Assembly: GCA_031291955.1 (NCBI GenBank)
Contig: JARLIA010000013.1
Span: forward strand, 21,512 to 85,511
Reading direction: 5' to 3'
DNA: 64,000 nucleotides
Origin: Minisyncoccota bacterium
Lineage (GTDB): Bacteria > Patescibacteriota > Minisyncoccia > Moranbacterales > UBA2206
Position 1 is the first letter of the stretch. Each line of letters starts with the position of its first letter. Shown one piece after another: positions 6,615-23,409 of the stretch. Made by a program: the position numbers and the translations under genes. The notes below the pieces were generated by a model, which saw only the letters and a program-made list of their open reading frames with translations, made no database searches and was not told the DNA's origin.

Positions 6615-6633
6615 TGTTATAATAAAATTATCA
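6615..6633 (+). promoter_or_regulatory. extended -10 (TGtTATAAT) overlapping a 7-3-7 near-palindrome TTATAATaaaATTATcA (PerR/Fur-box-like) about 30 bp upstream of rubrerythrin
   Basis: Read directly from the sequence; resembles the PerR/Fur operator consensus (TTATAAT-N-ATTATAA) found upstream of rubrerythrin genes in anaerobes. Confidence 0.35.
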
Positions 6634-6659
6634 GACCGTTAATCATTAATATAAAAACT

Positions 6660-7160
6660 ATGTCCAAGACTCAAGATGATCTGAAGGCAGCCTTTGCTGG
6701 TGAGTCGCAGGCCAATCGGCGCTATCTGGCATTTGCCAAGAAGGCTGAAAGCGAAAACCAGCCGGGCGTCGCCAAGCTTTTCCGGGCGGCGGCCGAAGGC
6801 GAGACGGTCCACGCGCTCAATCATTTCCGGAATCTCGGCGAAACGAAAGGCACGGCTGAAAATTTGGCGGCCGCGATTGCCGGAGAAACTTATGAGATTG
6901 AAAAGATGTATCCGGAATTTTTGGGGGACGCTCAAGACGAAAACGAAAAGAGGGCTGAGATGTCTTTTTCCGGCGCGCTGAAAGTGGAGCGGGTTCACCA
7001 AGGTCTTTTTAAAGGAGCTCTTGCGAAATTGGAAGCGGGCGAAGATGTGGCTGATGCGGACTTTTGGATCTGTCCGGTCTGCGGATTTCCAGCCAAAGAC
7101 CACGCGCCGGGCGTATGCCCCGTCTGCGCCACGCCGGGGGACAAGTTCTACAAGGTCTAG
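6660..7160 (+). CDS. rbr: rubrerythrin
   Basis: N-terminal ferritin-like diiron domain (AFAGESQANRRY) and C-terminal rubredoxin-like CPVCG...CPVC. The ATG at 6660 (MSKTQDDL) fits the family N-terminus better than the upstream ATG at 6612. Confidence 0.85.
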   Translation: MSKTQDDLKAAFAGESQANRRYLAFAKKAESENQPGVAKLFRAAAEGETVHALNHFRNLGETKGTAENLAAAIAGETYEIEKMYPEFLGDAQDENEKRAEMSFSGALKVERVHQGLFKGALAKLEAGEDVADADFWICPVCGFPAKDHAPGVCPVCATPGDKFYKV

Positions 7161-7188
7161 TTTTAAAAAACTTCACATTTCACAAAAG

Positions 7189-7212
7189 CCGGAAAGCATT
7201 TCCGGTTTTTGT
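7189..7212 (+). terminator. rho-independent terminator (CCGGAAA-gca-TTTCCGG + T-run)
   Basis: 7-bp perfect stem followed by TTTTT immediately after the rubrerythrin stop. Confidence 0.6.
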
Positions 7213-7322
7213 GTTTTTTGAGGGCGAATTATTTTCTTTGCCAAATCTGGTTTTGGACGTAGAATGGAGATGTAAGGAGATATGTCCTTACATGTGTATG
7301 TAAATAACTAAAAATAAAATAT

Positions 7323-7499
7323 ATGCGAAAAATCGAAGAGCAAAATGTCAGAAAATTGACAAAAACAGGAAGACAATCAATTTGTGTGACAGTGCCAATT
7401 GAAATGATCCGCGATCTTGGCTGGCGCGAAAAACAAAAGGTGGTCGTCAAAAGAATCTCCGGCGGATTGCAAATTAAGGATTGGCGGAGTAAGAAGTAA
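7323..7499 (+). CDS. small AbrB/MazE/SpoVT-family DNA-binding protein (58 aa; not in the ORF track)
   Basis: Manual translation MRKIEEQNVRKLTKTGRQSICVTVPIEMIRDLGWREKQKVVVKRISGGLQIKDWRSKK matches the looped-hinge-helix pattern of SpoVT/AbrB domains. It ends 35 bp before the next gene. Confidence 0.5.
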   Translation: MRKIEEQNVRKLTKTGRQSICVTVPIEMIRDLGWREKQKVVVKRISGGLQIKDWRSKK

Positions 7500-7534
7500 G
7501 GCATGGCAAGGTTTAATATGAAAACACACGAATT

Positions 7535-9160
7535 ATGAATATTGAAGAATTAAAAGAGTTGTTTCGGAGAAATGAATCAGAGAACTTAGAATTTAAAGAA
7601 GCTAAGAATAGTTTTTCTATTTTGGGAAATGATGGTAGACAAAAAAAATCGGTTTTAGGATATGTTGTTGCTGTAGGAAACGAAGGAGGCGGAAAGCTCA
7701 TTCTGGGAGTTGATGATGATAAAAATATCGTTGGAACCAGAGCAATTGAAAGGATTGAAGATGCTAAATCGCAAATATATAATAAGTTGAATTTCAGAAT
7801 TGATATCGAAGAAATATTCGACGAAGCGAACAATAGAATTGTTGTTATAGATATTCCTTCACGACAATACGGAAAACTGTTGAAGTTTTATGGTATACCG
7901 CTAATGAGAGTAGGTGAAGAGTTGCTCGAAATGGATGAGACCACACAGAGGAATATATTGATGGAGCTTCATGCCGACTTTTCCGCGCAGACCATACCCG
8001 GATCAAGCCTGGATGAATTGGATTCTGATGCCCTGGAGCAGTTGAAATTCCTCTATGCAAAGAGAAATAAGAATGGTGGAATGGATGAAAGGCAATTGCT
8101 TTTGGATTTGCATCTAGTGGATGATGGTAGACTGACATATGCAGCCCTTATTCTTCTCGGAAAAGAATCCGCTATAAGAAAGCATCTTGATAATGCAGAG
8201 ATTATTTTCCAATATCGATCACACAGAGATAATGAAAAATATCAAGACAGGGTGGATTATAAGAGGGCTTTTTTATTGTTGCAAAATGATTTATGGGAGA
8301 AAATAAATGCAAGGAATCAAATCGTGCAAATGGCAGAAGGCTTGCTGACAAATGAAATACCCGCCTTCCAGGAGGAAGTCATTAAAGAGATTATATTAAA
8401 TGCAGTTGCTCATCGTGATTATGCCGAACCAAGCTCTATTATCATAAAACAATCTCCCGAAGAATTTTTTATTCAAAGTCCGGGCGGCTTTCTTTCGGGT
8501 GTTAATCCTAAAAATATACTGAGGCAGACTAAGCCGCGCAATCGTCGCATTGCCGAAACATTGCAGCACTTAGGTTTTGTTCAGCGTGCTGGACAAGGCA
8601 TGGATATAGTCTTTAAAAAAACTCTAGAGGAGGGCAAGGGATTGCCGGATTTTTCCCAGTCAGATGATTTTCAAGTAAGTCTTTCTATTTCAGCGATTGT
8701 TAAGGATGAAAATTTTGTACTGTATTTGGAAAAGGTATCGCAAAAAAAACAGATTTCATTTTCCGTAGATGACTTAATGATTTTGCAAAATATTGAAAAT
8801 CATCCTCAGAAAATATTAAGGAATGATGTGCAGAAATTTATTGATCTAGGTATTGTTGAGCAGGTTGGAAAAACAAGGGGGGCAAAATATTGTCTTTCCC
8901 GTAATTATTATGCTGCACAAGGGAAGTCGGGGAAACATACAAGAATAATGGGAATTTCGAGAGATGCAAAAAAACAACTCATAGCTGATCATCTTAAAAG
9001 AAACATCGGCGGTGGCAGGTTGGAAGATTTCGCCGAAGCTTTTCCTGAAATGAAACGACAAGACATTTCCAATCTTTTGCAGGAATTAAAGCGTCAGGGT
9101 AAGATTTTTAAAATGGGCGGAACCAAGAATGGTGTTTGGAAATTAAATAATTCTAAATAA
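7535..9160 (+). CDS. AlbA_2 (divergent AAA / Schlafen-like) + HATPase_c_4 domain protein ('RecG-related' putative regulator)
   Basis: N-terminal LEFKEAKNSF...VVAVGNEGGGKLILGVDDDKNIVG matches the AlbA_2/AAA_4 signature; the C-terminal region has the architecture usually annotated HATPase_c_4. Confidence 0.6.
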   Translation: MNIEELKELFRRNESENLEFKEAKNSFSILGNDGRQKKSVLGYVVAVGNEGGGKLILGVDDDKNIVGTRAIERIEDAKSQIYNKLNFRIDIEEIFDEANNRIVVIDIPSRQYGKLLKFYGIPLMRVGEELLEMDETTQRNILMELHADFSAQTIPGSSLDELDSDALEQLKFLYAKRNKNGGMDERQLLLDLHLVDDGRLTYAALILLGKESAIRKHLDNAEIIFQYRSHRDNEKYQDRVDYKRAFLLLQNDLWEKINARNQIVQMAEGLLTNEIPAFQEEVIKEIILNAVAHRDYAEPSSIIIKQSPEEFFIQSPGGFLSGVNPKNILRQTKPRNRRIAETLQHLGFVQRAGQGMDIVFKKTLEEGKGLPDFSQSDDFQVSLSISAIVKDENFVLYLEKVSQKKQISFSVDDLMILQNIENHPQKILRNDVQKFIDLGIVEQVGKTRGAKYCLSRNYYAAQGKSGKHTRIMGISRDAKKQLIADHLKRNIGGGRLEDFAEAFPEMKRQDISNLLQELKRQGKIFKMGGTKNGVWKLNNSK

Positions 9161-9330
9161 TTATTAACATTAAATTGCTAAGAATACCTTTATTACAAGG
9201 AAAAAAATTAAATAATTAAGAGTATAATCGTAAAGCTTCCTTTATAAGTGAAAAAAAATTGCAATGTAACTGCCTATCTCCTCACATCAAAGGCAGCATA
9301 ACCGCGGAAAAATTTGATCACAAAAAGCAA

Positions 9331-9355
9331 AAACCGCCTTCCGGCGGTTTTTTAA
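9331..9355. terminator. bidirectional terminator hairpin (CCGCC-ttcc-GGCGG flanked by A-run and T-run)
   Basis: Lies between the convergent genes 7535..9160 (+) and 9366..9587 (-). Confidence 0.5.
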
Positions 9356-9365
9356 AATTTTTGAA

Positions 9366-9587
9366 TTATTTTTTCTTTCCTTTGCTTCCTTTCATGAGCA
9401 TGGCCGCGGCCGCGCCGAGGGCTGCTCCGATGCCGGCCGAGATGGCGGCGGCTTTCCCGGGGTTCTTTTTGATGTAGGCTTCCGCGGATTTGGCGGCGGC
9501 TTCCATATCCTTTTTTATCTTCTTGAGTTCGGTCTCGACCGTCTTTTGAACTTCCTCGGCTTTTTGGGCCATTTCTTTTTTGTCCAT
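9366..9587 (-). CDS. YqjD/ElaB-like (DUF883) small membrane-anchored protein
   Basis: 73 aa; coiled-coil N-terminus followed by YIKKNPGKAAAISAGIGAALGAAAA and a C-terminal TM, as in E. coli YqjD/ElaB. Confidence 0.45.
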   Translation of the reverse strand: MDKKEMAQKAEEVQKTVETELKKIKKDMEAAAKSAEAYIKKNPGKAAAISAGIGAALGAAAAMLMKGSKGKKK

Positions 9588-9607
9588 GTGATTATTAAAG
9601 TTAAAAA

Positions 9608-9913
9608 TTATTTCTTATCGGAAAGTGTCAGGGTGGCCCATGAGAAAATGATTATGACGGCGCCGACGATGGCATAACCCGCTCCGTTACCATATCCTGT
9701 GGCGCGGCCGATGATTTGGGCCAGGCCGACCAAAAGGAAGATAAATCCAAGTATCAGAACAATTGAGGCGATTGTTTTTTTGACGGCCGTTCCGAAAGCT
9801 CTTTTTATTTTTGCTTGCAGGTCTTTTACGAAAGAAATCGTAAAATATTCCAGCAGTCCCGAAAAAATCTCACTGGTTTTTTTGGATTTGGAATTGTTTT
9901 TTTGTTCGGTCAT
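9608..9913 (-). CDS. small 2-TM membrane protein, YqjE/DUF1469 (holin-X-like) family (tentative)
   Basis: 101 aa, two hydrophobic helices. Sits immediately upstream of the YqjD-like gene, mirroring the yqjD-yqjE pairing. Assignment is architecture-level only. Confidence 0.3.
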   Translation of the reverse strand: MTEQKNNSKSKKTSEIFSGLLEYFTISFVKDLQAKIKRAFGTAVKKTIASIVLILGFIFLLVGLAQIIGRATGYGNGAGYAIVGAVIIIFSWATLTLSDKK

Positions 9914-10010: not shown

Positions 10011-10039
10011 TTGACCTTTTGGCGCCGATGTTTTAGAAT
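10011..10039 (+). promoter_or_regulatory. sigma70-like promoter TTGACC-17 bp-TAGAAT upstream of the GT-C paralog array
   Basis: -35 hexamer at 10011..10016 and -10 hexamer at 10034..10039 with a 17-bp spacer, 45 bp upstream of ATG 10085. Confidence 0.4.
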
Positions 10040-10084
10040 TAAATAAGCCTATTGAGCGCCTTGTTATTTATAAGTACAAAAAAT

Positions 10085-11845
10085 ATGTTTGAAAATTTCT
10101 TAGCTAAAAAATACGTCGTGCCGGCGATCCTGCTTCTCATTATGTTCGGGGCTTTTGCGGTGCGCTTTTATCATTATGACACCTGGCTCTATTTCAAGAT
10201 GGACCAGTCGCGGGACGCTTTCACTATTTCCAATGCTGTCAAAAACGGTCCGGGAAATCTACCGCTTCTTGGAGCGCGAGCCGGCGCCACCAAAGTGACC
10301 TACGGATTCCTCCATCTCGGGCCGGTCTTTTATTATTTCCAATACCTTTCGGGCGTTATTTTCCATTCGACTTCTCCGCAAGTCTTCGCTTATCCCGATC
10401 TATTCTTTTCCATCGCCGTCCTGCCGCTCTTGTATATTTTTTTGCGCCTTTATTTCTCCCGTCTCAATTCTTTGCTGATTGTTGCGATGTACGCTTTCTC
10501 GTTTCTCGTCATTGAATATTCCCGCTTCGCCTGGAATCCGAATTCGTTGCCGTTTTTCACTATCTTGAGTTTTTACGGCCTGTTGAAATTTCTTCACGAG
10601 CCGGAGGAAAAAAAACGCAAATGGTGGCTCATTCTTTGGGCGATCGGACTCACGGTCGGATCGCAGCTTCACTTCATGGGTTTCTTTTCCTTAGTGGGAA
10701 TCTCGGCGCTTTTGTTTTTCTTCCACTACGAACTTTGGAAAAAAGAAAATATACGCGGCGTTTTTCAGGAAAATAATTTTCGCGTATTGGCCCTTTACGC
10801 GGGTCTGGCCTTTTTGGTGGTGCTGATTTTTTACGCCCCGGTCATCATCAGCGATTCCATGAAAAACTGGGCCAACACCAAAGATTTTTTTCAGGCTTTC
10901 TCCACTAAACAGGGAAATCGACCCATCACGACCCGGGCGATCATTGGTCTTCAGTCCCAGATTGAATATTACGTCATGATTTTTACGTCTTACATTATCA
11001 CCAAAGGCAGTAATAATACTTACGGCTCATTGCTATCCATTTTGATCGGCGCTCTGTTTGTCGGCGGCAGTTATCTGATCTATAAATTTTTCAAAGAGAC
11101 CAAGGACAATCTGCGGAAAGATTTTCTACTTCTGGTTTTTCTGTGGTTTTTCATCTTTTTGCTGATCACCATCCCGGTGGCCACGCAAATCGAACCGCGC
11201 TATTTCATTTTCACCTTTGCCGTGCCGTTTATCTTCTTGGGATTTTTTTTCGAGTTTTCCGAAAGAAGATTGCCTGAATATTCCACGGGAATCGCTATAG
11301 CCGTGACAGTCGTAATCCTTTTGGCTAACGCGTCCGGCACGTCGGCCTGGTTTTCCGAGCAGGCCAAATCGCAAAAGGAGCATCTGACGATTCATCGGAC
11401 TTTGATCTTAAAAACTAAAGACGGGGTGACGCTCGGCCAGTTGCAAGGTGTGGCCGATTATATCTATCAAAACCGGATCCCCAGCGACCGGATCTATTTT
11501 TACGTCAAACCCGAACACGTCCGGCCGCTTAATTATCTTTTCTTTGAAAAAAACGACAAGTCTTTCAACTATTATTCTTTCAAACTGAACGGCGATCCAT
11601 TGGCGCAATATTTCATCGTTTTGCCGTCCGATTATGCAGAGAGTGAAGTAGCGGCCAAAATTAATATCAACCAGCCGATGAATATAATTTCCATGCAGAA
11701 ATTCGGCCAGCTGGCCGTCTGGCAGGTCACTTTTCCGGGACGAACAGTGGACGGCAATTTCCAAGCCAAGTCCAAAGACTCGAATGTGGAATCGGACCGG
11801 GTTTATTGGAAAGATGTTTTCGGGACGAAGAAACCTAAAAATTAA
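10085..11845 (+). CDS. GT-C fold membrane glycosyltransferase paralog 1 (ArnT/PMT-like)
   Basis: Shares the family N-terminal motifs with paralogs 2-6. These are the first-loop ...W..FxxDQ(A/S)RDA motif, HLGPxYYYF, AYPDL/V..FSI..IPLLY and SRFAWNPNS, plus a QLH block. More than 10 TM helices, then a roughly 250-aa soluble C-terminal domain. The ATG at 10085 is preferred over the ORF-track start at 10052. Confidence 0.6.
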   Translation: MFENFLAKKYVVPAILLLIMFGAFAVRFYHYDTWLYFKMDQSRDAFTISNAVKNGPGNLPLLGARAGATKVTYGFLHLGPVFYYFQYLSGVIFHSTSPQVFAYPDLFFSIAVLPLLYIFLRLYFSRLNSLLIVAMYAFSFLVIEYSRFAWNPNSLPFFTILSFYGLLKFLHEPEEKKRKWWLILWAIGLTVGSQLHFMGFFSLVGISALLFFFHYELWKKENIRGVFQENNFRVLALYAGLAFLVVLIFYAPVIISDSMKNWANTKDFFQAFSTKQGNRPITTRAIIGLQSQIEYYVMIFTSYIITKGSNNTYGSLLSILIGALFVGGSYLIYKFFKETKDNLRKDFLLLVFLWFFIFLLITIPVATQIEPRYFIFTFAVPFIFLGFFFEFSERRLPEYSTGIAIAVTVVILLANASGTSAWFSEQAKSQKEHLTIHRTLILKTKDGVTLGQLQGVADYIYQNRIPSDRIYFYVKPEHVRPLNYLFFEKNDKSFNYYSFKLNGDPLAQYFIVLPSDYAESEVAAKININQPMNIISMQKFGQLAVWQVTFPGRTVDGNFQAKSKDSNVESDRVYWKDVFGTKKPKN

Positions 11846-11876
11846 ACGGTCCATTCGAGATTAGCTCAGGCCCGAC

Positions 11877-13517
11877 ATGACTATTGGAATGGAAAAAATA
11901 AAAAAGAAGATAAAAAAAATTCCGACAAGTATTTTGATTCTGACGGTAATTGTTCTAGTTGGGATTTTCTTGCGGACCCATAATTTCCACGCTTGGTTGG
12001 AATTTGACAACGACCAGGCGCGGGATGCGGCTTTGGTGAGCGACGTCGTGACCGGAAAAACCGCTTGGCCACTGCTTGGACCGACAATGAAAGGAACAAA
12101 CGATTCTTCGGAAAATCTGTTCCATGTTGGGCCGATGTATTATTATTTTGAAATTATTTCTGCCAAAATATTCGGCAATTATCCGGACAAGCTGGCCTAT
12201 CCGGATCTGATCTTTTCCATTCTGACCATCCCACTCTTTTATTATTTTTTGAAAAAATATTTCAGCGCCAATTTATCTTTGGCTCTCGCCGGTCTTTGGA
12301 CTTTTTCCTATTTCGCCATCAAATTTTCCCGCTTCGCCTGGAACACCAATTCCATGCCGTTTTTTATTTTGCTTTTTCTTTTGGGACTGGGAGAATTTTT
12401 GTTCCGGCGGGAAAAAACTTCCTGGTGGTGGGCGCTGGCTTTGGGGATCGCGCTCGGTGTGGGAGTGCAGCTTCACGCTATGCTTCTGGTTATGTTTCCG
12501 TTTTTTTGCTTGGGCGGATTTTTTCTGACTGTCAAAAGCGGAAAGGGGATGTGGCTGCGCTGGGGAAGCGTTCTTCTTATCGCGCTGGTTCTTAATGCCG
12601 GTCAGATAGTCCACGAACTCGACACAAATTTCCAAAACACGTATGCTTTTTTCCAGAACGCCAACGATCGTTCCGGATCTAGGGCGGATAAGTTTTCCCA
12701 GACGTTCGCTCTGGACGCGGCGTGCCATGTCCAATCCAACGCGTTCATGCCTTCCGCCCTTGGCGACAAGGACCATTGCAATTTTTTGAAGACCGCGGCG
12801 GGTTGGGTGGCTTTGGATTATGATTCCTATTGGCAGCTCGGATTCATTCTGGCGGCGCTGGCCTTTTCTTTGTTCGGCTATGCGGCATTGGTTCGGAATT
12901 TTTTGAAGGAAACCGACCGCGAGCGGAAAATATTTTTCGGACTGGCTCTTGGTTATATAATTCTCTTTTTCATTATCATGTTCGCTTCCATCCAAGAAGC
13001 GCCACTCCGCTATTTTCTTCCGTCTTTTTTTGTGCCTTATTTATTCCTGGGATTTTTGATCCAAGCCGGACAAAAGAAATATCCGCGCCGATATTTCCCG
13101 GTCGTGGCGCTGGGACTCGCGATCCTCCTGGCTCTGAACGTGATTTATCTCTTGACTGTCATTTCCCAGCTCGAGGCCAAGGACCGAAGCGGGAGCAGCG
13201 ACGTTATCTTGGGCGAGCTGGAATCGATGCGCGATTACATCATCACGACCGCCGCGCCGAGCAAGACTGCGTATTTTTCCGGCGGATCCCATTACGTTTT
13301 TCGTTTTCTCCGGCCGCTCCAATATTTGGCTGGCAAGGACAATTTCTCGATTAAGCAAGAACCCCAACTGTTTGCTAGTATGAAACCAGGAGAACCGGTA
13401 TTTTACATTTATGCCAGCTATCCCCGGAAAAAATTAACCGCAATCAAGGGGATGCCGATCGTGACTTACAAAAATTTCGGCCAAGTGGCCGTGTACGAAG
13501 TGATTAAGACGAAATAA
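11877..13517 (+). CDS. GT-C fold membrane glycosyltransferase paralog 2
   Basis: Motifs FLRTHNFHAWLEFDNDQARDA, HVGPMYYYF, YPDKLAYPDLIFSIL, SRFAWNTNS and QLHA; 31 bp after paralog 1. Confidence 0.6.
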   Translation: MTIGMEKIKKKIKKIPTSILILTVIVLVGIFLRTHNFHAWLEFDNDQARDAALVSDVVTGKTAWPLLGPTMKGTNDSSENLFHVGPMYYYFEIISAKIFGNYPDKLAYPDLIFSILTIPLFYYFLKKYFSANLSLALAGLWTFSYFAIKFSRFAWNTNSMPFFILLFLLGLGEFLFRREKTSWWWALALGIALGVGVQLHAMLLVMFPFFCLGGFFLTVKSGKGMWLRWGSVLLIALVLNAGQIVHELDTNFQNTYAFFQNANDRSGSRADKFSQTFALDAACHVQSNAFMPSALGDKDHCNFLKTAAGWVALDYDSYWQLGFILAALAFSLFGYAALVRNFLKETDRERKIFFGLALGYIILFFIIMFASIQEAPLRYFLPSFFVPYLFLGFLIQAGQKKYPRRYFPVVALGLAILLALNVIYLLTVISQLEAKDRSGSSDVILGELESMRDYIITTAAPSKTAYFSGGSHYVFRFLRPLQYLAGKDNFSIKQEPQLFASMKPGEPVFYIYASYPRKKLTAIKGMPIVTYKNFGQVAVYEVIKTK

Positions 13518-13539
13518 AAAATAAGATCCGATTGCCGTT

Positions 13540-15222
13540 ATGTTTTTTCAAATTCAAAAAAATATAAAAAAAAATTCCGCGGCCGGGTGGATTCTTTTGG
13601 CAATTTTTGTTGTCGGCGTTTTTTTGCGGACTTATAATTTTCACGCCTGGCTGGAATTTCGAAGCGACCAGGCGAGAGATGCGTACCGGACCGACCAGGT
13701 GGTTTCAGGAGAAAAGCCTTGGCCGCTTGTGGGGCCGTTTTTGAGCCATTCCGGTCCCACCGAAGACGAGTCGTTCCATGTTGGTCCGATCTATTATTAT
13801 TTCCAGATAATTTCCGCCGAAATTTTCGGCAGCTATCCCGACAAACTGGCCTATCCTGATGTCTTTTTTGCTATCTTGTCCATCCCGCTTTTCTATTTGT
13901 TTTTGCGGGAATACTTCGGCAAAAATGTTTCACTGGGGCTTACCGGGCTGTATTCCATCGGCGCTTATATTATCCGCTATTCCCGTTTTGCTTGGAGCTG
14001 CAATTCGATTCCGTTTTTCGTTTTGTTGTTTTTGCTGTCTCTTTTCAAGCTGTGGGACAAAAACGAAAAAACCGCCTGGGCTTGGGCGGTCGCGCTGGGA
14101 GTCGCCTGGGGAGTCGGGTTTCAACTGCACGCCCTGACGATGATCGCTTTTTCCGGCACGGCTTTTTTGGTTTTTATTTTTTCAATGAGGAAAAATCCCG
14201 CAACTTGGAAAAAATGGTCCGTGGTTTTGGCGATATTTGTTCTTTTGAACTCGGCTCAAGTTGTCGGTGAAATAAAAACCAATTTTGAAAACACCCGGGC
14301 TCTTTCGCGTTTTCTTTTTCAGAACGGTTCCGCGGATAACCCGAGTGGTCTCGACAGTTCGAATCCCATCAATCACGCCGGCGTTTCCACTTTGTTGAAA
14401 AACGACATCGATTGCAGCCTGGAGGCCAATTTTTTGTACCTGTCGTCTTACAATGACGTCGCTTTCGGCCGCGAAAATTGTCAGGGAAATTATTGGAAAC
14501 TTTTTTCGCGGAGCAATACGAAAAAACATTCAAAAGTATCTTGGATAAAGATCGGCGATGTGGTTCTTTTTTCCAGTCTTGTTTTTTCCCTCGTTGGCTA
14601 TTTTCTTCTGTTGTTCTATGATAAAAAAGAACCAAATGAAAGAAAGCGGCGTTTTCTGCACCTGCTTGTTCTGTATACAGGCTTGGCGTTTTTGCTCATG
14701 CTGCCTCTGAGCAGCGGAAAATTCGGCGATTTGAGATATTTCAGTCTTCTTTTTTTCTTGCCCTTTTTGTTTTTAGGGCTTATCGCAAAACTTCTCTTCG
14801 AAAAAGTCGCTCCAAAATATATTGCAATACCGGTTGCGGCTGTAATTTTTTCCTTGTTTGCGGCTTCCAATGTTTCGGCGATAACTTATCGGCTTTCAAT
14901 ACTTTCCAAAAAAGAAGGCATGGACTCCGGCACGGCTGTCCTGGGAGAAATGGAAGACACGCTTGATTATGCGATTTCCCATTCAAACGGGCAGAAAAAA
15001 ATATATCTAGGAGGGAACCGTTCTTTAACGGCCCATTCTTTCGACTCTTTGCAATATCTGGCCGGGAAACAAAATGTGGGGCTGATAAAATTCGGCGACA
15101 AAGATAAACTGGACCCGGCCAAGAAACCGGCCTTCTGTGTTGATGATAAAATAGATAAAAAAGAGGCCGTTTACGGTTATAAAAAAGTGGGCAACGTTTA
15201 TATTTATCAGATAAACAAATGA
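13540..15222 (+). CDS. GT-C fold membrane glycosyltransferase paralog 3
   Basis: Motifs FLRTYNFHAWLEFRSDQARDA, HVGPIYYYF, SRFAWSCNS and QLHA; 22 bp after paralog 2. Confidence 0.6.
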   Translation: MFFQIQKNIKKNSAAGWILLAIFVVGVFLRTYNFHAWLEFRSDQARDAYRTDQVVSGEKPWPLVGPFLSHSGPTEDESFHVGPIYYYFQIISAEIFGSYPDKLAYPDVFFAILSIPLFYLFLREYFGKNVSLGLTGLYSIGAYIIRYSRFAWSCNSIPFFVLLFLLSLFKLWDKNEKTAWAWAVALGVAWGVGFQLHALTMIAFSGTAFLVFIFSMRKNPATWKKWSVVLAIFVLLNSAQVVGEIKTNFENTRALSRFLFQNGSADNPSGLDSSNPINHAGVSTLLKNDIDCSLEANFLYLSSYNDVAFGRENCQGNYWKLFSRSNTKKHSKVSWIKIGDVVLFSSLVFSLVGYFLLLFYDKKEPNERKRRFLHLLVLYTGLAFLLMLPLSSGKFGDLRYFSLLFFLPFLFLGLIAKLLFEKVAPKYIAIPVAAVIFSLFAASNVSAITYRLSILSKKEGMDSGTAVLGEMEDTLDYAISHSNGQKKIYLGGNRSLTAHSFDSLQYLAGKQNVGLIKFGDKDKLDPAKKPAFCVDDKIDKKEAVYGYKKVGNVYIYQINK

Positions 15223-16857
15223 AAAATTATCTTAAAAATGTTACGGCCCGTGCTTGGATCCTTTTGGTGATCATGGCTGTTGGAATATTTCTGCGTGCTT
15301 GGCATTTTCATGACTGGCTGCGTTTCAGCGAGGACCAATCACGGGATGCTGGCATAATAAGCAATGTTATTAAAGGTGAAAGTCCGTTGCCGCTTTTGGG
15401 ACCCGTGGCTGGCGGTACGTTTTTCCATTTGGGTCCGGCTTATTATTATTTTTCCATTGTTAGCTCTAAGCTGTTTGGGGACTATCCGGACAGGATGGCT
15501 TATCCGGTTTTGTTTTTTTCCATTTTGGCCATCCCGCTGCTTTATTTGTTTTTGAAGGAATATTTCAGTTGGCGAATTTCGTTGGCTGTAACGGCAGTAG
15601 CGAGTGTTTCGTATTTTTCTGTCGTGAGCTCGCGTTTTTCCTCTAATCCCAATCTGGCGCCGTTTTTTGTGTTGGCTTTTCTGTATTCCTTTTTGAAATT
15701 GCTTAATGATAAAGAGCGCGCGTCTTTTTGGTGGCCGGCCGCGATCGGAACCGTGTTGGGAATCGGCATCCAGATCCACACCACGCTTCTGGTTATTTTG
15801 CCGATTTTTACCCTGCTGATGCTGGCGTATCTCATAAAAAAGACCGGCTGGCGGGCGGTGCGCTATGCGTTGGTAATCATAGTTTTATCTTTGGCGATGA
15901 ACGCGCCGCAGATCGCAAGCGAAATCGAAACCCGCGGCCAGAACACTATTCAGTTTTTCGGCGGCTTGGGCCTGAAAGGGAGTTCTTCCGGTAGTGGCCT
16001 GGCTCAGGGTGCTCTGACTGCCGCACTTTGCCAAGCCAAAGCCAACTCCTATTTCATTTCTTCTTTTCCCGCTGCCCAGACCTGCTCGTCCGGCATAGAT
16101 TTCGATCTTGAAAAAGGCGCCAAGGAAGTGTTTGGCGGCATTAAGGACCGCTCCTTCCGGCAAAACGTCTATCTGGCCGACGTTTCATTTTTGTTTCTTT
16201 TTTCCATTGGGGGGTTATTTTTTGTTGATTTATAATCTTTTAAAAGAAAAAGACGCCCGGAAGAATAATTTTCTCGCGCTGGTCGCTCTTTTCAATTTCG
16301 TTTCGTATATTTTAATCATCCCTGTCATTTCCTCCATGGCCGTGAGCTATTTCATCATTCTGCTTTTCGTGCCGTTTGTGCTGCTTGGATTGATGTTTCG
16401 ATATATCGAAGAGAATATGAAACTGTCTGGAATAGGATTGATTTTATTTTTAGCGGCTGTCCTGATGATTTTTTCGCTGCAGGCGGAAAAGAGCGACGCG
16501 GATCTTTATGTTGCTCGCCTTGACAACAACGTGGAAAACAGCGACCTGGGAGCGATTGAGGATATCTCCGCCTACATTCTGGATAATTCGTCTTTTGCTC
16601 CGAAGATTTATTTGAGTGGCAGAAAAGATTATTTGAACCGGTTCTCCGGCTCGCTTACGTACATGATTGGACGGCAGGGAAGGCAGCTGGTATCATTGGA
16701 CATAAGCGATTCCGACACTCTCCGCTCCGGCCAGACATTTTTCTATGTCCAAAAAAGCGGGAAGGGGAGTGTGACTCGCAATGAAGAGATCGGGGGATAC
16801 GCGGCTGTTGACGGTGAAAGAATCGGCGGCGTGGAAATTTATATTTTGAAAAAATAA
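15219..16857 (+). pseudogene. GT-C glycosyltransferase paralog 4, interrupted by a frameshift (ORFs 15219..16235 and 16108..16857)
   Basis: The N-terminal ORF carries the family motifs (FSEDQSRDA, HLGPAYYYF, SRFSSNPN). Homology to paralog 5 continues in the second ORF's frame from about 16200: GGYFLLIYNLLKEKDARKNNF aligns with GYYFLIYNFVREKENGRKNF. The frame change maps to a G6 run at 16209..16214. Confidence 0.6.
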
Positions 16858-16870
16858 TGTTTTCGAAATT

Positions 16871-18469
16871 ATGAAATCGATTCCGGACAAAATTAAAAAT
16901 ATCTCGAAATATTTTTGGGTTTTCCTGGCTATTTTTCTGGTCGGTGTTTTTCTCCGTACGTATAAATTCCATGATTGGATGCGTTTTTCTATGGACCAGG
17001 CGAGAGATGCCGCCATCATCAGTAATGCTGTTGCCGGGAAAGCACCCTTGCCGTCCCTTGGGCCAGATGCTGGAAACACTAAGTTTTTGCTCGGGCCGAT
17101 GTATTACGATTTGTCTTATCTCAGCGCTAAAATATTCGGAAATTATCCCGACAAGATGGCCTATCCCAGCCTGGCTTCCGGCATCTTAGCTATTTTGTTC
17201 CTATTCTTTTTTCTTCGCGAATATTTCGACCAAAAAATCTCGCTGGCGCTTACGGGAATCATGAGTGTTTCATATTTCATGATCGACACATCCCGTTTTT
17301 CATCGAACCCTAATCTGGTGCCGCTTTTTGTCATTCTGTTTCTCTGGGGGTTGCTGAAAATTATCAATGACCCGCGGGAATTTCATCCCGGCTGGAGCGC
17401 TCTGGTCGGTTTTGCCCTGGGCATGGGGGTCCAGATGCACGCCATCACTTTGGTGGTGATGCCGGTTTTCGGTCTTTTAGCTCTGGTTTATTTTTGGAAA
17501 GTAGGCGGAAAGGGGATGGGAAAAAGTTTGATCATAATTATCGCGTTAGCTTTGCTTTTCAACATCGGGCAGATCACGTCGGAACTTCACACTAATTTTC
17601 AAAACACCCGGAATTTTTTCCAAGGGCTCAAGAGCAAATCAGAAAACAATTATGGGGAGGGTGCGGGTCTCATTGCTGCTTGTCAGATCGAGGCCAACGG
17701 TTATTTTCTGACTTCCATCGGTGATGACTATGATTGCGGTGATATTTTCAAAACACCCAAAGGCGGCTGGATCGCCGACAAATCTTATCTTCTGACGCTG
17801 GCTGCCTACACGCTCTTTTCGCTGACCGGTTATTATTTTTTGATTTACAATTTTGTCAGAGAAAAAGAAAATGGGCGGAAAAATTTTCTGGGACTGGTCC
17901 TTCTTTTTAATCTACTGACTTTCATCGTACTTGTAAGTGTTTCCAGCGTTATCCATGTAGGGTATTACATCGTTCTGTTTTTCATGCCGTTCGTGCTTCT
18001 GGGAATTCTTATGGAAGCAGTGCGGAATAAATACGGCCGAAAGGGAATGCTGGCGGCCGCGGTGGTCATTCTTCTTTTGATCGGGTCTTCTTTGGCAGTG
18101 GACGGCGCGATGGCTTCAAGTTATGCTCAAGGTTTACAAAACAATTCAAGCAACAGCACGCTTTTTCAAGCTGAAGCGATGGCGGATTATATCCTGACAA
18201 CCAGCCCCCAAAATGTTTCCAAGGTTTATTTCGCCGGGCAAGGGAGTTTGGCCAAACGCTACTATGACGCGACCATCTATCTTGTCCGGCAAAGCGGCCT
18301 AAATATGTCTTTGATCAAAGATGTCGACAGCCGCAGGATTGCGCCCGGAGTGCCGATTTATTACATCGCCCAAAGCGGCGCTTATCCGGTACCGGGAATG
18401 ATTGGTAACCGCCAGATAACAGCCAGTCGGCAATTTCTCAACCAGACGATTTATATTTTGAAAAACTAA
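16871..18469 (+). CDS. GT-C fold membrane glycosyltransferase paralog 5
   Basis: Motifs FLRTYKFHDWMRFSMDQARDA, LGPMYYD, YPDKMAYPSL, SRFSSNPN and QMHA. Confidence 0.6.
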   Translation: MKSIPDKIKNISKYFWVFLAIFLVGVFLRTYKFHDWMRFSMDQARDAAIISNAVAGKAPLPSLGPDAGNTKFLLGPMYYDLSYLSAKIFGNYPDKMAYPSLASGILAILFLFFFLREYFDQKISLALTGIMSVSYFMIDTSRFSSNPNLVPLFVILFLWGLLKIINDPREFHPGWSALVGFALGMGVQMHAITLVVMPVFGLLALVYFWKVGGKGMGKSLIIIIALALLFNIGQITSELHTNFQNTRNFFQGLKSKSENNYGEGAGLIAACQIEANGYFLTSIGDDYDCGDIFKTPKGGWIADKSYLLTLAAYTLFSLTGYYFLIYNFVREKENGRKNFLGLVLLFNLLTFIVLVSVSSVIHVGYYIVLFFMPFVLLGILMEAVRNKYGRKGMLAAAVVILLLIGSSLAVDGAMASSYAQGLQNNSSNSTLFQAEAMADYILTTSPQNVSKVYFAGQGSLAKRYYDATIYLVRQSGLNMSLIKDVDSRRIAPGVPIYYIAQSGAYPVPGMIGNRQITASRQFLNQTIYILKN

Positions 18470-18549
18470 GTAACTAACGCGGGGACGTGCCATGTTCCCA
18501 GTTGGAAAACAGCGTTTGGACATGGTACGTCCAAAGTCGAAGCAAGAAG

Positions 18550-20175
18550 ATGCAAGAATATTTTAAAAAAATTATGCGGCAAAAAACTTTCTGGCTCCTG
18601 GTCGGGATAATCTTGGTCGGCGCATTTTTGCGGACTTATCAATACGCCAATTTCCTGCGTTTCAACCCCGATCAGGCGCGGGACGCCGGCATAATTCGCG
18701 ACGCAATCGACGGAAAGGCCGCTTTGCCGCTCCTGGGACCGAAAGCCGGCGGCACCAGTTTCCAATTGGGGCCGGTTTTTTATGATTTCGCGTATTTCTC
18801 CGCCAAGATTTTCGGCGCGGCGCCGGACAGGATGGCTTATCCCGATCTTCTGACCTCGATTTTGTTCCTGCCGCTTCTTTATGAGTTCGCGCGTAAATTC
18901 TTTTCAAAAAATATTTCCTTGGTCGCGACGGGGTTGGCGGCTGTGTCGTTTTATGCTGTGAAATATTCCCGCTTTGCTTGGAATCCCAACTCGACGCCTT
19001 TTTGGATCCTGCTGACTTTCTACGCTTTTTTCGAATTGGTTCGGTCCGGTCAGAGAAAGCGTTGGCTTTGGGCGATTGTTTTGGGTCTCGCGGCCGGTGT
19101 TGCCATCCAGCTGCATTCTTTGGCCTTGTTCTCACTGCCGGTCGTTTTTGTGATTTATTTTGTTTATCTTTTTTTCAAAAAAAATCCGGCTTGGAAATGG
19201 GCGCCGGTTGTTCTGGCTGTCGTACTGTTGGCTAATTCGTTCCAGATTGCGAGTGAAGTCCAGACTGGAGGCAAAAACATCCAGTCCTTTTTTCGCGGCA
19301 TGCACGCCAAAACTTCCCGCTCCGGAACGTTAGCGGATAAGTTTGTGCTCGACGCCGTCTGCCATATTCAAGGAGAGAGCTATATGATTCTCCCGATCGG
19401 CAACGACAGTCATTGCGATTTTATGGACGCGGCCGGCAGTTTACAAAAAAATAGCAATAATAATTTTCTTTTGTTGGGAGATATGCTTTTTGCCGTCATT
19501 TTTGTTCTGGGTGGATACTTTCTTCTTTTCCGAGCTTGGTGGAAAGAAACGGACGAGCGGAAAAAAATATTTTTGGAACTTATCCTGCTTTATGCGGTTG
19601 TTCTTTTCGTCCTGTTGATTCCTTTGGCCGACGAGATTTCTTTCCGCTTTTTCCTGGTGGCGGAATTTCTGCCGTTCATTTTCGCCGCTTTGTGGATCAA
19701 GTTTTTCGAAGAACGTCTTGAGAAAAAATACTTTATCATTGTTGTAGCTATAATCGTAGGTATGGCCGTAGGTACGAACCTGACGACTTTGACGGATTAT
19801 GCCGCCAATTTGGCCGGTGTTCGGGCACAGGGCTCCAACGGTTTTGAAGAGATCACGCTGGGCGAAGTGAAATACATGGCTGATTTTATGGAAACCAATT
19901 CGGGCGGCGCTAAGATTGTTTATGTCCAGGGCAGTGCTGCCGATCTTTTCGAGGTCCTAAAGCCGATCGAATATTTCACAAGTCCCTCCGGCCTCAAAGT
20001 GATCCAGCTCAAAAAAGGAAAAATTTTGGCGCCGATGGACAAAATTTTTCTCATCAATGTCATGAAAGATCCAACCAAGAAAAATACTCTTTCCCAAAGC
20101 ACTCTAGATAGCTATAGCGTCCTGGCTTCCGGCCGGTACGGTCGTGTCAAGATTTATGAATTGGAAATGAAATAG
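18550..20175 (+). CDS. GT-C fold membrane glycosyltransferase paralog 6
   Basis: Motifs FLRTYQYANFLRFNPDQARDA, LGPVFYDF, YPDLLTSILFLPLLY, SRFAWNPNS and QLHS. The internal ATG at 18550 (MQEYFKK) is preferred over the GTG-type start at 18487. Confidence 0.6.
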   Translation: MQEYFKKIMRQKTFWLLVGIILVGAFLRTYQYANFLRFNPDQARDAGIIRDAIDGKAALPLLGPKAGGTSFQLGPVFYDFAYFSAKIFGAAPDRMAYPDLLTSILFLPLLYEFARKFFSKNISLVATGLAAVSFYAVKYSRFAWNPNSTPFWILLTFYAFFELVRSGQRKRWLWAIVLGLAAGVAIQLHSLALFSLPVVFVIYFVYLFFKKNPAWKWAPVVLAVVLLANSFQIASEVQTGGKNIQSFFRGMHAKTSRSGTLADKFVLDAVCHIQGESYMILPIGNDSHCDFMDAAGSLQKNSNNNFLLLGDMLFAVIFVLGGYFLLFRAWWKETDERKKIFLELILLYAVVLFVLLIPLADEISFRFFLVAEFLPFIFAALWIKFFEERLEKKYFIIVVAIIVGMAVGTNLTTLTDYAANLAGVRAQGSNGFEEITLGEVKYMADFMETNSGGAKIVYVQGSAADLFEVLKPIEYFTSPSGLKVIQLKKGKILAPMDKIFLINVMKDPTKKNTLSQSTLDSYSVLASGRYGRVKIYELEMK

Positions 20176-20204: not shown

Positions 20205-20237
20205 ACGCGAGTGCCTGTCATGGGCACGCGTTTTTTG
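20205..20237 (+). terminator. rho-independent terminator after the GT-C array
   Basis: ACGCGAGTGCC-tgtcatg-GGCACGCGT followed by TTTTTT. Confidence 0.55.
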
Positions 20238-20395: not shown

Positions 20396-21766
20396 ATGTA
20401 CGAAAATCAAAACAGAACAACCGAGCAAGCCCTGTCTTATCCGATGATCCGGTTCTATCCGGCCAAGTCCCGTTTTGATTGGCGCGGTTTGTTTTATAAG
20501 TCCGGCATTGTTGTCTCCGGCGCGCTTTTGCTTTTTCTGATTATCCTTCTTAAATCCAAAACCACCAGCGACTTTGACCTTGAGCCGTTTCTTTTTTCTT
20601 ACGCGATCATCGTGACTACCTTTGAACTTTCCCGGGTGATTTCCGCCATGCTGTACGAAAAATCTTTCGAAAGTCTGACCCAGGAATTTCGGGACACTCC
20701 GGGCGGCGAGCCATATGAGCCGAAAATCGCTTTTGTCATTCCCTGCATGAACGAAGAGCGGGACATCGCCGACGCCATCATCCAATGCCACCAGCTGGAT
20801 TATCCGCGGGAAAAGATGGAAGTGATCGTGGTGAATGATGGAAGCACCGACCGGACGCAGCTGGTTTTGGAAGAACTCAAAAAATTCTATCCCGGGATAA
20901 AAATAATCAGCTGGGAAAACCAAGGCAAACGCTGGGGGATGGCGGCCGGTTTCAAAGTCTCTGACGCGGAAATAATTATCCAGTTGGATTCGGATTCCCA
21001 TGTCGACCCGAAAACTTTCCGGAATCTTTTGGATCCTTTCCGAAACCCCCAGGTTGGGGCGGTCTGCGCCCACGGCGAGCCGCGGAATGCCGACGAAAAT
21101 TTCGTGACCCGGATGCAGACAGCCTACTATTTCATGTCTTTCCGGATTTTGAAAGCAGCTGAGTCGACCTATGACGCCGTCTTTTGTTGTAGCGGCTGTT
21201 GTTCTGCCTACCGCAAGTCGGCCGTGATGCCGGTCATCTACCACTGGCTCGCGGAAACATTCTTAGGAAAACCCGTTACTTGGGGAGACGACCGGGCGCT
21301 CACTAGCTGGCTAATCAGGACCGACTGGAAGACTGTCTATGCCAAGGACGCCCTGGCCTACACGGTCGTGCCGGACACTTTCAAAAAACTGATGAAGCAG
21401 CAGTTGCGTTGGAAAAAATCTTGGATCGTCAATTTCTTCCTGACCGGAAAATTCATCTGGAAGAAGCAGCCTTTTGTTTCCTCTTTCTACTATTTCCCCT
21501 TGATATTTATCTCATTGATGACGCCGGTCATGACGTTTGACGCGCTCTTCTGGCAGCCGTTCGTAAAAGGTGTTTTTCCGATCTATCACATCCTTGGAAT
21601 CTTGATGCTGACGGGAATCATCGCGCTCTATTACCGCTATGTAGATCGGAAGAATAAATACTGGATATATCTTTTCCCTTGGGCGCTGGTCAATCTGTTT
21701 GTTCTTTCTTTCGTTCTGGTTTATGCGGCTTTCAAGATCCAAGACCGGGGCTGGGGGACGAGATAA
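20396..21766 (+). CDS. processive family-2 glycosyltransferase (cellulose/chitin/hyaluronan/PNAG-synthase-like)
   Basis: N-terminal TM segment, then a GT2 catalytic core (VIPCMNEE, VNDGSTD, QLDSDSH) and a QQLRW motif (QxxRW, hallmark of processive GT2 synthases), then C-terminal TM helices. Confidence 0.7.
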   Translation: MYENQNRTTEQALSYPMIRFYPAKSRFDWRGLFYKSGIVVSGALLLFLIILLKSKTTSDFDLEPFLFSYAIIVTTFELSRVISAMLYEKSFESLTQEFRDTPGGEPYEPKIAFVIPCMNEERDIADAIIQCHQLDYPREKMEVIVVNDGSTDRTQLVLEELKKFYPGIKIISWENQGKRWGMAAGFKVSDAEIIIQLDSDSHVDPKTFRNLLDPFRNPQVGAVCAHGEPRNADENFVTRMQTAYYFMSFRILKAAESTYDAVFCCSGCCSAYRKSAVMPVIYHWLAETFLGKPVTWGDDRALTSWLIRTDWKTVYAKDALAYTVVPDTFKKLMKQQLRWKKSWIVNFFLTGKFIWKKQPFVSSFYYFPLIFISLMTPVMTFDALFWQPFVKGVFPIYHILGILMLTGIIALYYRYVDRKNKYWIYLFPWALVNLFVLSFVLVYAAFKIQDRGWGTR

Positions 21767-21805
21767 AAAAGTCGAAAGTCCGTAAAGTTTATAAAGTCAA
21801 AAGTT

Positions 21806-23368: not shown

Positions 23369-23409
23369 AAGGTGGTATAATCAAAGCAATCTTTCGGCAG
23401 TTTAAATTT

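Follow-up and report, generated by a model that had tools for sequence, protein, structure and literature searches.

ArnT (GT83), the lipid A Ara4N transferase, is a membrane glycosyltransferase of about 550 aa with 13 transmembrane (TM) helices and a C-terminal periplasmic domain; PMTs (protein O-mannosyltransferases, GT39) have 11 TM helices, bear a DE motif in their first loop, and carry a MIR domain in the large loop facing the lumen. RgtA and RgtB of Rhizobium are GT-C enzymes with a dodecaprenyl-phosphate-GalA donor, and RgtC and RgtD are further ArnT-like galacturonosyltransferases of the same genus. RgtA and RgtB add GalA to Kdo (PMC4402001). Multi-component transmembrane glycosylation combines a GT-A enzyme, a flippase, and a GT-C enzyme, a scheme in which an outer loop bears a modified DxD motif (PMC8035078). 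It occurs in Gram-positive and Gram-negative bacteria and is exemplified by CsbB/GtcA/YfhO, GtlA/GtcA/GtlB, GacI/GacK/GacL, the three Csd pairs of Lactococcus lactis, and phage Gtr clusters (PMC8035078, PMC5836110, PMC11127046). We describe a tandem array of GT-C genes, g1 to g6, from a CPR genome and compare it with these systems.

Gene calls confirmed six consecutive plus-strand paralogs at positions 10052 to 20175 of the 64-kb window (the whole stretch of DNA analyzed), as proposed in an earlier sequence-only reading. They are g1 (10052 to 11845; 597 aa from TTG), g2 (11877 to 13517; 546 aa), g3 (13540 to 15222; 560 aa), g4 (15219 to 16857), g5 (16871 to 18469; 532 aa), and g6 (18487 to 20175; 562 aa from GTG). 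The tight spacing described earlier (13 to 31 bp with one 4-nt overlap) was found in the order 31, 22, −4, 13, and 17 nt, the overlap being that of the g3 stop with the g4 start; the product length of 530 to 600 aa given there holds for g1, g2, g3, g5, and g6 (532 to 597 aa) but fails for g4, which is split by a frameshift. Judging from the paralog alignment, the annotated starts of g1 and g6 are probably too far upstream, and ATG codons at 10085 and 18550, respectively, are likelier. A sigma-70-like promoter match (TTGACC-17-TAGAAT, 10011 to 10039, plus strand) lies just 5′ of g1, and a terminator-like GC hairpin with a T-run (20211 to 20236, plus strand) lies 36 nt past the g6 stop, both being consensus matches only; together with the short spacers and the overlap, they suggest that g1 to g6 form a single six-gene operon.

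The g4 gene is at present frameshifted, with a +1 shift dividing it into ORFs of 338 aa (15219 to 16235) and 249 aa (16108 to 16857). Removing one G from a G6 homopolymer (16209 to 16214, plus strand), which has one G too many, restores a 545-aa g4 paralog without further stops. An independent Logan assembly of run SRR23300979 (locus L070), 100% identical over 13337 to 17837, carries the same G6. Intact g4 orthologs (46 to 49% identity) occur in loci L004, L043, L047, and L049, and the paralogs are retained throughout, with only 2 of about 245 array genes broken. We consider g4 probably inactive and probably a recent pseudogene.

The array genes encode membrane glycosyltransferases with a GT-C fold, of the PMT_2/ArnT/PMT type; within the PMT_2/ArnT-like family they fall in a branch restricted to CPR. 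All six, and a distant seventh GT-C (GTCd), matched Pfam PMT_2 (PF13231; gathering cutoff, 26.1 bits) or PMT (PF02366; 22.7 bits) above these curated thresholds, in keeping with the GT-C placement read from the sequence. PMT_2 scores were 37.5 (g2), 33.4 (g3), 34.4 (N-terminal ORF of g4), 42.1 (g5), and 41.9 bits (g6); g1 fell below the PMT_2 cutoff (22.9 bits) and passed via PMT (42.1 bits), where its match covers only HMM positions ~90 to 227 of 245. Pairwise identity among g1 to g6 is 25 to 41% over the whole length and reaches 52% within the N-terminal 240 aa, and BLAST E values between paralogs, down to 1e-105, place this similarity far beyond chance. The core motifs pointed out earlier are present in the six paralogs, some positions being more variable than first quoted: FLRT..FH.W..F..DQ(A/S)RDA, (H/L)LGPxYY, AYPDL..SIL.IPLLY, SRF(A/S)(W/S)NxN, and Q(L/I/M)H.

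Similarity to characterized GT-C enzymes is faint at the sequence level. A profile search of PDB sequences gave no match, to ArnT or any other entry, at an E value of ≤1, and g1 and GTCd had no PDB sequence match at an E value of ≤10. Alignment of the family profile by hhalign with Escherichia coli ArnT or a 12-sequence ArnT profile was weak (E, 0.014 to 0.017; 195 to 213 columns), with the motifs aligned and DQARDA placed on the ArnT motif DETRYAE (E, 0.014). In fold alignments, identity to characterized GT-Cs was 11 to 15%.

Structure prediction was run on one paralog, g2 (AF2; pLDDT, 94; pTM, 0.92). The first 25 Foldseek matches in the PDB were all GT-C enzymes, with ArnT best (E, 1.4e-7), followed by STT3, PglB, ALG9/12, AftA/B, Pmt1/2/4, and EmbB; the highest TM-scores were those of ALG9/ALG12 (0.48 to 0.54), and Pmt4 gave 0.49/0.53. 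Transporters appeared only at E values of >0.02 and TM-scores of ~0.1. The predicted topology of the paralogs has a cytoplasmic N terminus and 11 TM helices, with Lys/Arg clustered in the predicted inner loops. TM1 spans g2 residues 17 to 34; the loop after it, the first extracytoplasmic one, is predicted to face outward and holds D46 and D50, which all six paralogs keep. The first-loop acidic motif and the topology of more than 10 TM helices noted previously thus both stand. Among 124 homologs, R33, D46, D50, N158, P161, and Q198 (g2 numbering) are invariant and H200 and R378/Y379 nearly so, all in predicted outer loops save R33 at the outer end of TM1. The first-loop D46-Q-x-R-D50, N158, Q198/H200, and R378/Y379 form the putative outer-face active site.

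The sequence-only reading had given each paralog a different soluble C-terminal domain of roughly 250 aa, and this does not hold: g1 to g6 are collinear along their whole length. Their C-terminal half consists of a ~75-aa extracytoplasmic loop, four further TM helices, and a homologous ~100-aa alpha/beta domain, also extracytoplasmic. An HMM of this domain trained on g2 orthologs alone matched all six end to end (g3, 7e-23; g5, 9e-17; g4, 1e-16; g6, 2e-16; g1, 6e-9); an extra C-terminal tail of ~37 aa occurs in g1 only. No known structure matched the domain significantly (best E, 4.8e-3; TM, 0.36), so it offers no hint of carbohydrate binding. Each paralog also has a large outer loop, EL4. Identity within versus between orthogroups is 42/21% for EL4, 38/18% for the C-terminal domain, and 54/40% for the core; orthogroup-specific conservation is thus concentrated in EL4 and the C-terminal domain. 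The paralogs probably carry out separate steps, and the separate role earlier proposed for each is, on these sequence comparisons, probable.

Arrays of this kind were undescribed in the literature searched. Among 66 related CPR loci, arrays of 3 to 8 such GT-C genes are usual, and individual paralogs have one-to-one orthologs in up to ~36 other loci. The g1 orthogroup is separate and usually first in the array, with orthologs of 46 to 60% identity in most related loci (single-copy clade of ~36 to 38 tips). The g3 orthogroup is single-copy (~15 loci), that of g5 is sister to that of g4 (NJ tree), and g6 falls in a single-copy clade of ~23 tips, with orthologs in L004, L007, and L033 at 53 to 55% identity. 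The array is an old, conserved feature of Moranbacteria/Parcubacteria-type CPR genomes, neither private nor recent, and the former label of a lineage-specific expansion is misleading.

Upstream, the window starts inside a plus-strand UDP-glucose/GDP-mannose dehydrogenase gene (UGDH; 1 to 791), of which the 3′ part, with the central and UDP-binding domains only, is present. It is followed on the plus strand by a cytoplasmic GT4 (GT4a; 788 to 1960; Glycos_transf_1, 148 bits; 11 to 15 related loci), overlapping by 4 nt the next gene, a flippase-like membrane protein (Flp; 1957 to 2880; PF03706 [LPG_synthase_TM], 115 bits; TIGR00374, 68 bits; 9 to 10 related loci). On the minus strand lie a galacturonidase/rhamnogalacturonidase-like GH28 (2882 to 4516; PF00295, 102 bits; NCBIfam alpha-D-galacturonidase, 333 bits but under the equivalog cutoff; 11 to 12 related loci) and GTCd (4582 to 6480; 632 aa; PMT, 42.6 bits; PMT_2, 34.9 bits). 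GH28 has an N-terminal membrane anchor (TM at residues ~10 to 27) and is conserved beside GTCd. The existence of this more distant GT-C had been recognized before, and we correct its strand: it is divergent from the array, has a DE motif after TM1, shares 16 to 20% identity with the array paralogs, and has homologs in 35 to 39 related loci as a conserved divergent partner.

The recurrent order in the 66 loci starts with GT2b-UGDH-GT4a-Flp, continues with GH28 and GTCd on the opposite strand and then the GT-C array, and ends with Wzx-Tmk-RtcB-GT4b-DUF6541 on the opposite strand. The match of GT2b to ArnC is full-length (174 bits), and PgfS scored 150 bits; such an ArnC/GtrB-like GT2 adjoins the syntenic block in 18 related loci. 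UGDH is linked in 6 to 7 of the 66 loci, with GT2b beside it in relatives, including the closest, L003. Wzx occurs in 33 loci, GtrA in 6, LCP and TagA/WecG genes in some, and an ALG10/DIE2-family protein within arrays of related CPR genomes. The 64-kb window holds no ArnC/GtrB-like GT2 (in multi-component systems, the membrane-linked enzyme that makes the C55-P-sugar), GtrA, Wzx, LCP, or TagA gene; because it starts inside UGDH, directly upstream of which GT2b lies in relatives, the GT2 gene may sit just beyond its edge.

With moderate confidence, we infer multi-component transmembrane glycosylation in which lipid-linked sugars are built into an envelope glycan and the GT-C array supplies the transferases. 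An ArnC/GtrB-type GT2 would load the sugar onto undecaprenyl phosphate on the cytoplasmic side, a step drawn from the synteny in relatives and the window being cut inside UGDH. A flippase would then carry the lipid-linked sugar outward, the candidates being Flp in the window and, in relatives, GtrA or Wzx. Each GT-C paralog would transfer its sugar to its own position on a growing or preformed envelope glycan, which may be a polysaccharide of the wall or a lipoglycan with a glycolipid anchor. The one hint of uronic acid in this glycan is the linkage of UGDH and the membrane-anchored GH28.

The paralogs might instead be PMT- or TfpW-like protein O-glycosyltransferases acting on secreted or surface proteins (e.g., type IV pilins or S-layer proteins), each on a separate protein or site, which we judge unlikely. 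The best Pfam families are named PMT and PMT_2, with g1 and GTCd matching PF02366 itself, Pmt4 is among the better fold matches, and the 11 predicted TM helices equal the PMT number. PMT_2, however, is a catch-all that also takes in ArnT-type transferases of lipids and glycans, no paralog had a MIR-family match at an E value of ≤0.01, and the DE pair of PMTs is replaced by D-Q in the array. The NCBI name of a protein 100% identical to g2, [quoted passage not shown] is, given this motif, the lack of a MIR hit, and the partial PF02366 match, a family-level label that does not speak for protein mannosylation. The genes conserved next to the arrays include none for a candidate acceptor protein and are those of glycans and glycolipids (GT4, Wzx, GH28, UGDH, LCP, TagA); the pilin or S-layer acceptor considered previously is therefore unsupported by the conserved neighborhood.

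Less likely still are ArnT-like modifiers adding single sugars to a membrane lipid or glycolipid head group, for charge or shielding, without making a polymer. ArnT tops the Foldseek list and resembles the paralogs in size and layout, an ArnC-like GT2 and UGDH are linked in relatives, and the GT4 and the flippase-like protein could together synthesize an acceptor glycolipid and export it. Against this, arnA, arnB, and arnD are absent (no arn-type gene among the window ORFs scanned), CPR bacteria are not known to make lipid A, and six to eight distinct conserved orthogroups with Wzx, GH28, LCP, and TagA exceed what head-group decoration needs. That the array mainly generates diversity, with partly redundant transferases toggled (e.g., by G6 slippage) and surface glycans varied against phages or hosts, is very improbable: the g4 homopolymer frameshift is reproduced in a second assembly and copy number varies between genomes, but G6 is short for phase variation, broken genes are rare, and old single-copy orthogroups with conserved specificity regions argue for fixed, distinct functions.

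Returning to the envelope-glycan pathway, CPR/Patescibacteria typically have genomes of about 1 Mb and lack many biosynthetic pathways, and yet seven or more large GT-C genes (~12 kb in the window) are kept under purifying selection in a conserved cluster, which points to an elaborate surface glycan assembled extracytoplasmically. Its possible roles include host attachment, phage defense, and envelope integrity. A broader proposal, which we hold to be doubtful, is that a major surface glycan of Moranbacteria/Parcubacteria-type CPR is built largely outside the membrane by 7 to 10 dedicated GT-Cs, one linkage each, with one or two undecaprenyl-phosphate-sugar synthases. If so, the system would parallel, in these bacteria, the ER-lumenal ALG3/9/12/6/8/10 series or mycobacterial LM/LAM synthesis. 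Its product might then be a lipoglycan or wall polymer rich in uronic acid, which the anchored GH28 would trim, and this glycan might be a key part of the surface with which the ultra-small cells live as episymbionts. The orthogroups offer a handle, being small (~540-aa), confidently modeled GT-Cs with comparable specificity regions (EL4 and C-terminal domain).

The array resembles the three-component systems in that its membrane transferases are GT-Cs whose outer loop bears an acidic motif, that a membrane-bound ArnC/GtrB-type GT2 and GtrA- or Wzx-type flippases are linked in relatives, and that wall-polymer genes form the context (LCP, TagA, WecA-like, rml). It differs in belonging to the PMT_2 branch rather than YfhO/GtlB/GtrII, in the GT2 and GtrA genes missing from the window, and in number: known systems have one GT-C per GT2, whereas clusters here have 6 to 8 GT-C paralogs plus 1 to 3 distant ones and one or two GT2 genes. 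Among the fold matches ArnT ranks first; it also has a C-terminal extracytoplasmic domain in ~550 aa and aligns weakly in the first loop (D-E-T-R-Y-A with D-x-x-R-x-A of the array), but identity is only 13%, the array model has 11 TM helices against 13, CPR are not known to have lipid A or LPS, and the window ORFs scanned include no arn genes. Several paralogs side by side, with the uronic-acid pathway gene UGDH and an ArnC-like GT2 linked in relatives, recall ArnT/RgtA/RgtB.

The array paralogs have no sequence-level orthology to the enzymes of mycobacterial and corynebacterial lipoglycan and arabinogalactan assembly (PimE, MptA/B/C, AftA-D, EmbC-EmbA-EmbB) or of the ER ALG3/9/12/6/8/10 series, and unlike Emb and AftD they carry no carbohydrate-binding module. 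Even so, embCAB is likewise a tandem GT-C array, ALG9/ALG12 gave the highest TM-scores, and the ALG10/DIE2-family protein lies in related CPR arrays. The likeness is one of pathway logic only: as proposed here too, cytoplasmic GT4s would start a lipid-linked glycan, which would be flipped and then extended by a series of GT-Cs, one linkage each, from polyprenyl-phosphate sugars.

Six successive reading frames occupy positions 10052 to 20175 of the + strand (ORF listing): g1 (10052-11845; 597 aa, TTG start), g2 (11877-13517; 546 aa), g3 (13540-15222; 560 aa), g4 (15219-16857; two overlapping ORFs, not intact), g5 (16871-18469; 532 aa), and g6 (18487-20175; 562 aa, GTG start). Measured gaps of 31, 22, −4, 13, and 17 nt agree exactly with the close spacing given in the sequence-only reading. 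The array is preceded by a promoter-like site (10011-10039) and followed by a terminator-like hairpin (20211-20236), both consensus matches only.

The array proteins are almost certainly GT-C glycosyltransferases. Pfam PMT_2 (PF13231) scored above the gathering score in g2 to g6, and Pfam PMT (PF02366) in g1 and in GTCd, a distant seventh GT-C gene (4582-6480, − strand). The g2 product was modeled from 124 homologs (AF2; mean pLDDT, 94; pTM, 0.92) and searched against the PDB with Foldseek, where the first 25 matches were all GT-C. ArnT matched with an E value of 1.4e-7, and other GT-C matches were STT3/OST, PglB, ALG9/ALG12/ALG3, AftA/AftB, Pmt1/2/4, and EmbB (11 to 15% sequence identity; TM-scores, 0.31 to 0.54). 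Transporters, named in the sequence-only reading as the alternative to its GT-C assignment, appeared only at E values above 0.02 with TM-scores of about 0.1; that identity was rejected and the assignment stands. On all testable criteria, the proteins are members of the GT-C superfamily and of Pfam PMT_2; they do not qualify as ArnT or PMT in the strict sense. Sequence ties to characterized enzymes are marginal: hhalign to Escherichia coli ArnT gave a marginal link (E, 0.014 to 0.017; DQARDA opposite ArnT DETRYAE), an ArnT profile of low diversity (at least 76% identity) from a homolog search brought no gain over the single sequence, and PDB sequence searches found no match at an E value of ≤1 with the family profile or of ≤10 with g1 and GTCd.

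The predicted topology (model helices, hydropathy, and positive-inside rule) is N-in with 11 transmembrane helices and the C-terminal domain on the outer side. The shared motifs quoted earlier were found in the array proteins, and 10 residues (g2 numbering) were invariant in the 124 homologs (R33, D46, D50, P65, G68, G85, A107, N158, P161, and Q198), with H200, R378/Y379, and the cysteine pair C283/C301 nearly so. All invariant polar residues lie in predicted outer loops except R33, at the outer end of TM1. The cysteine pair (codons at about 12723-12779) sits in the large outer loop EL4 and would fit both a disulfide and the presence of a DsbA-like protein (56183-57376).

Paralog identity was 25 to 41% overall and up to 52% across the first ~240 residues. 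Where a different soluble domain of about 250 aa had been proposed after each core, the six proteins proved collinear to the C terminus. Residues 240 to 546 of g2 comprise EL4 (~75 aa), four further transmembrane helices, and an alpha/beta domain of ~100 aa (AF2 model and hydropathy). HMMs built from g2 orthologs only matched the EL4, helix, and C-terminal segments in all six paralogs, the C-terminal-domain HMM over its full length (E, 7e-23 to 6e-9); judged by these profiles, the C-terminal half ends in one homologous domain, diverging faster than the core. Only g1 carries an extra C-terminal tail (~37 residues). Modeled alone (pLDDT, 80.5), the domain returned only insignificant Rossmann-like fragments, with no significant structural neighbor and no sign of a carbohydrate-binding module from model or structure comparison.

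NCBI already labels the array proteins GT39 family, and g2 is 100% identical to a [quoted passage not shown] Named homologs (Moranbacteria/Moraniibacteriota, Parcubacteria, and Saccharimonadales) are all Patescibacteria (CPR). Among 1.84 billion representative proteins, searched exhaustively, only 332 matched at an E value of ≤1e-30 and 1,623 at ≤1e-3; within the large PMT_2 family, this branch is small and restricted. The literature searched for CPR/Patescibacteria together with GT-C, PMT_2, GT39, or ArnT held no description of such arrays.

Related loci were found in GTDB species genomes with the g2-ortholog alignment, and in the resulting 66 loci same-strand tandem arrays of three to eight family members are the rule. 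By best-hit analysis and neighbor joining, the window paralogs fall in separate old orthogroups. Single-copy clades hold g1 (~36 to 38 tips; usually opening the array), g6 (~23 tips), and g3 (~15 tips), and g4 clusters with four intact orthologs (46 to 49% identity) and only then with g5. Recent in-genome duplication was rejected, as no window paralogs are sisters, save that g5 joins the g4 orthogroup clade. The duplications are therefore older than the divergence of these genomes; the supposed lineage-specific expansion is instead a trait of the class, varying by birth and death of genes, and is not recent in this genome. Identity within versus between orthogroups was 54 versus 40% for the core, 42 versus 21% for EL4, and 38 versus 18% for the C-terminal domain, as would be expected of orthogroups that each conserve a specificity of their own.

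Clustering every flanking ORF from the 66 loci defined a recurrent super-cluster. It comprises a forward part (GT2b, UDP-glucose dehydrogenase [UGDH], the cytoplasmic glycosyltransferase GT4a, and a flippase-like gene), a reverse part before the array (a GH28 glycoside hydrolase and the distant GT-C), the GT-C array itself (forward), and a reverse part after it (Wzx, Tmk-like, RtcB, GT4b, and DUF6541). The window holds the left part: UGDH (1-791, +; cut by the window start), GT4a (788-1960, +), the flippase-like gene (1957-2880, +), GH28 (2882-4516, −; N-terminal membrane anchor), and GTCd. GT2b (312 aa) is a GT2 whose membrane helices are C-terminal, with a full-length match to ArnC (174 bits) and a match to PgfS (150 bits); in L003, the closest related locus, it lies immediately upstream of UGDH, the gene inside which the window starts. 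The 64-kb window has no ArnC/GtrB-like GT2, GtrA, LCP, or TagA gene and no Wzx block; GtrA, LCP, and TagA/WecG genes occur in a few of the 66 loci. The reverse block after the array was seen, for example, in L007-L010, L017, L019, L029, L033, L043, and L047, and its RtcB RNA ligase and thymidylate kinase-like genes form an odd, conserved linkage to glycan genes.

Between GTCd and g1 lie a rubrerythrin (6612-7160), a Schlafen/AlbA_2 plus HATPase_c_4 protein (7535-9160), a bidirectional terminator hairpin (9329-9352), and two small membrane ORFs (9366-9587 and 9608-9913, −). Because g1 directly follows the distant GT-C in L003 and L007, the genes at 6612-9913 look like a local insertion. In related arrays the g1-type gene is often followed by an ALG10/DIE2-family protein, a metallophosphoesterase, or a membrane protein of 720 aa. 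The first (PF04922, 126 bits) was seen in or beside arrays of L007, L011, L020, L023-L025, L028, L030, L050, L053, and L062 and is absent from the window; elsewhere, PF04922 is known as the Dol-P-Glc glucosyltransferase that acts in eukaryotic N-glycan assembly.

Multi-component transmembrane glycosylation uses a membrane-linked GT-A to make C55-P-sugar, a GtrA- or Wzx-type flippase to export it, and a GT-C, bearing a (modified) DxD motif on one of its outer loops, to transfer the sugar to a wall polymer (PMC8035078). The parts of the array and its neighborhood fit such a system. Gene structure, family, fold, topology, conserved residues, synteny, and orthogroups are observed; we infer donor type, glycan acceptor, a step for each paralog, and sugar identity. 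Several GT-C orthogroups are kept together, and each may act at its own extracytoplasmic step on a single envelope glycan, which would be a wall polysaccharide or a lipoglycan begun by the GT4/flippase-like pair. Linked UGDH and anchored GH28 (a galacturonidase-type family) suggest, by linkage only, a uronic acid in the product. We consider this pathway model as a whole fairly probable.

Protein O-glycosylation of the PMT/TfpW type is doubtful, as the array proteins have neither a MIR domain nor a DE pair and the loci no conserved acceptor gene. ArnT-like modification of a lipid head group with a single sugar agrees with how the fold matches rank and with an ArnC-like partner but leaves the number of conserved orthogroups and the Wzx, LCP, TagA, and GH28 genes unaccounted for, and is quite unlikely.

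The gene g4, previously taken as one intact array gene, consists of two overlapping ORFs (15219-16235, 338 aa; 16108-16857, 249 aa), and comparison with paralogs located the break in a G6 run (16209-16214). Removal of one G yields a 545-aa protein that has no further stop and aligns end to end with the other paralogs. The frameshift is probably real, because the same G6 recurs in the Logan assembly of an independent run (SRR23300979; 100% identity over 13337-17837); assembly error is unlikely as its sole cause. Only one other internally broken gene was found among ~245 array genes in related genomes, which makes g4 look like an exception of recent origin. That other gene is the g1 ortholog of L011, a Moranbacteria-type MAG (4877-6639, apparently two ORFs). 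Programmed frameshifting in g4 was judged unlikely, the run being without known stimulatory context, in contrast to the genuine, classical +1 site (CTT TGA, 61346) upstream of prfB (release factor 2; 61443-62384), whose main ORF lacks ~27 positions at the start of the PCRF domain. RF1 (42992-44056, −) is also present, and standard code 11 therefore applies. That the array is a phase-variable diversity generator, to which the G6 frameshift is the sole pointer, is very improbable given how rare broken array genes are.

Directly after the array, a NodC/PgaC-like processive GT2 (20396-21766) and two polysaccharide deacetylases (21806-23368 and 24317-25210) belong to an apparent module (20396-27765) for making a poly-GlcNAc-type polymer with partial deacetylation; the module also carries two ORFs without assigned family and a DUF4012 protein. 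Except for DUF4012 (one locus), no homologs of these genes lie beside arrays in the 66 loci. Further genes (27945-33294, 38962-40002, and 44702-45637) encode rmlC-rmlB-rmlA, rmlD, rhamnosyltransferase-like GT2s, a GT4, and a WecA-like phosphotransferase, a set that makes a rhamnose-containing Und-PP-linked polymer; this polymer could serve the GT-C enzymes as an acceptor, and no conserved linkage of the set to arrays was seen. Neither the NodC-like GT2/deacetylase genes nor the rml genes were accepted as array parts, since they are not conserved array neighbors elsewhere.

It is moderately interesting that ultra-small genomes keep so many glycosyltransferases acting outside the membrane for a putative surface glycan. 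In function, the array comes nearest to the Gram-positive multi-component glycosylation systems and to the ArnT/Rgt family; its pathway logic is closest to that of the mycobacterial Emb/Aft/Mpt enzymes and of the ALG series of the ER.
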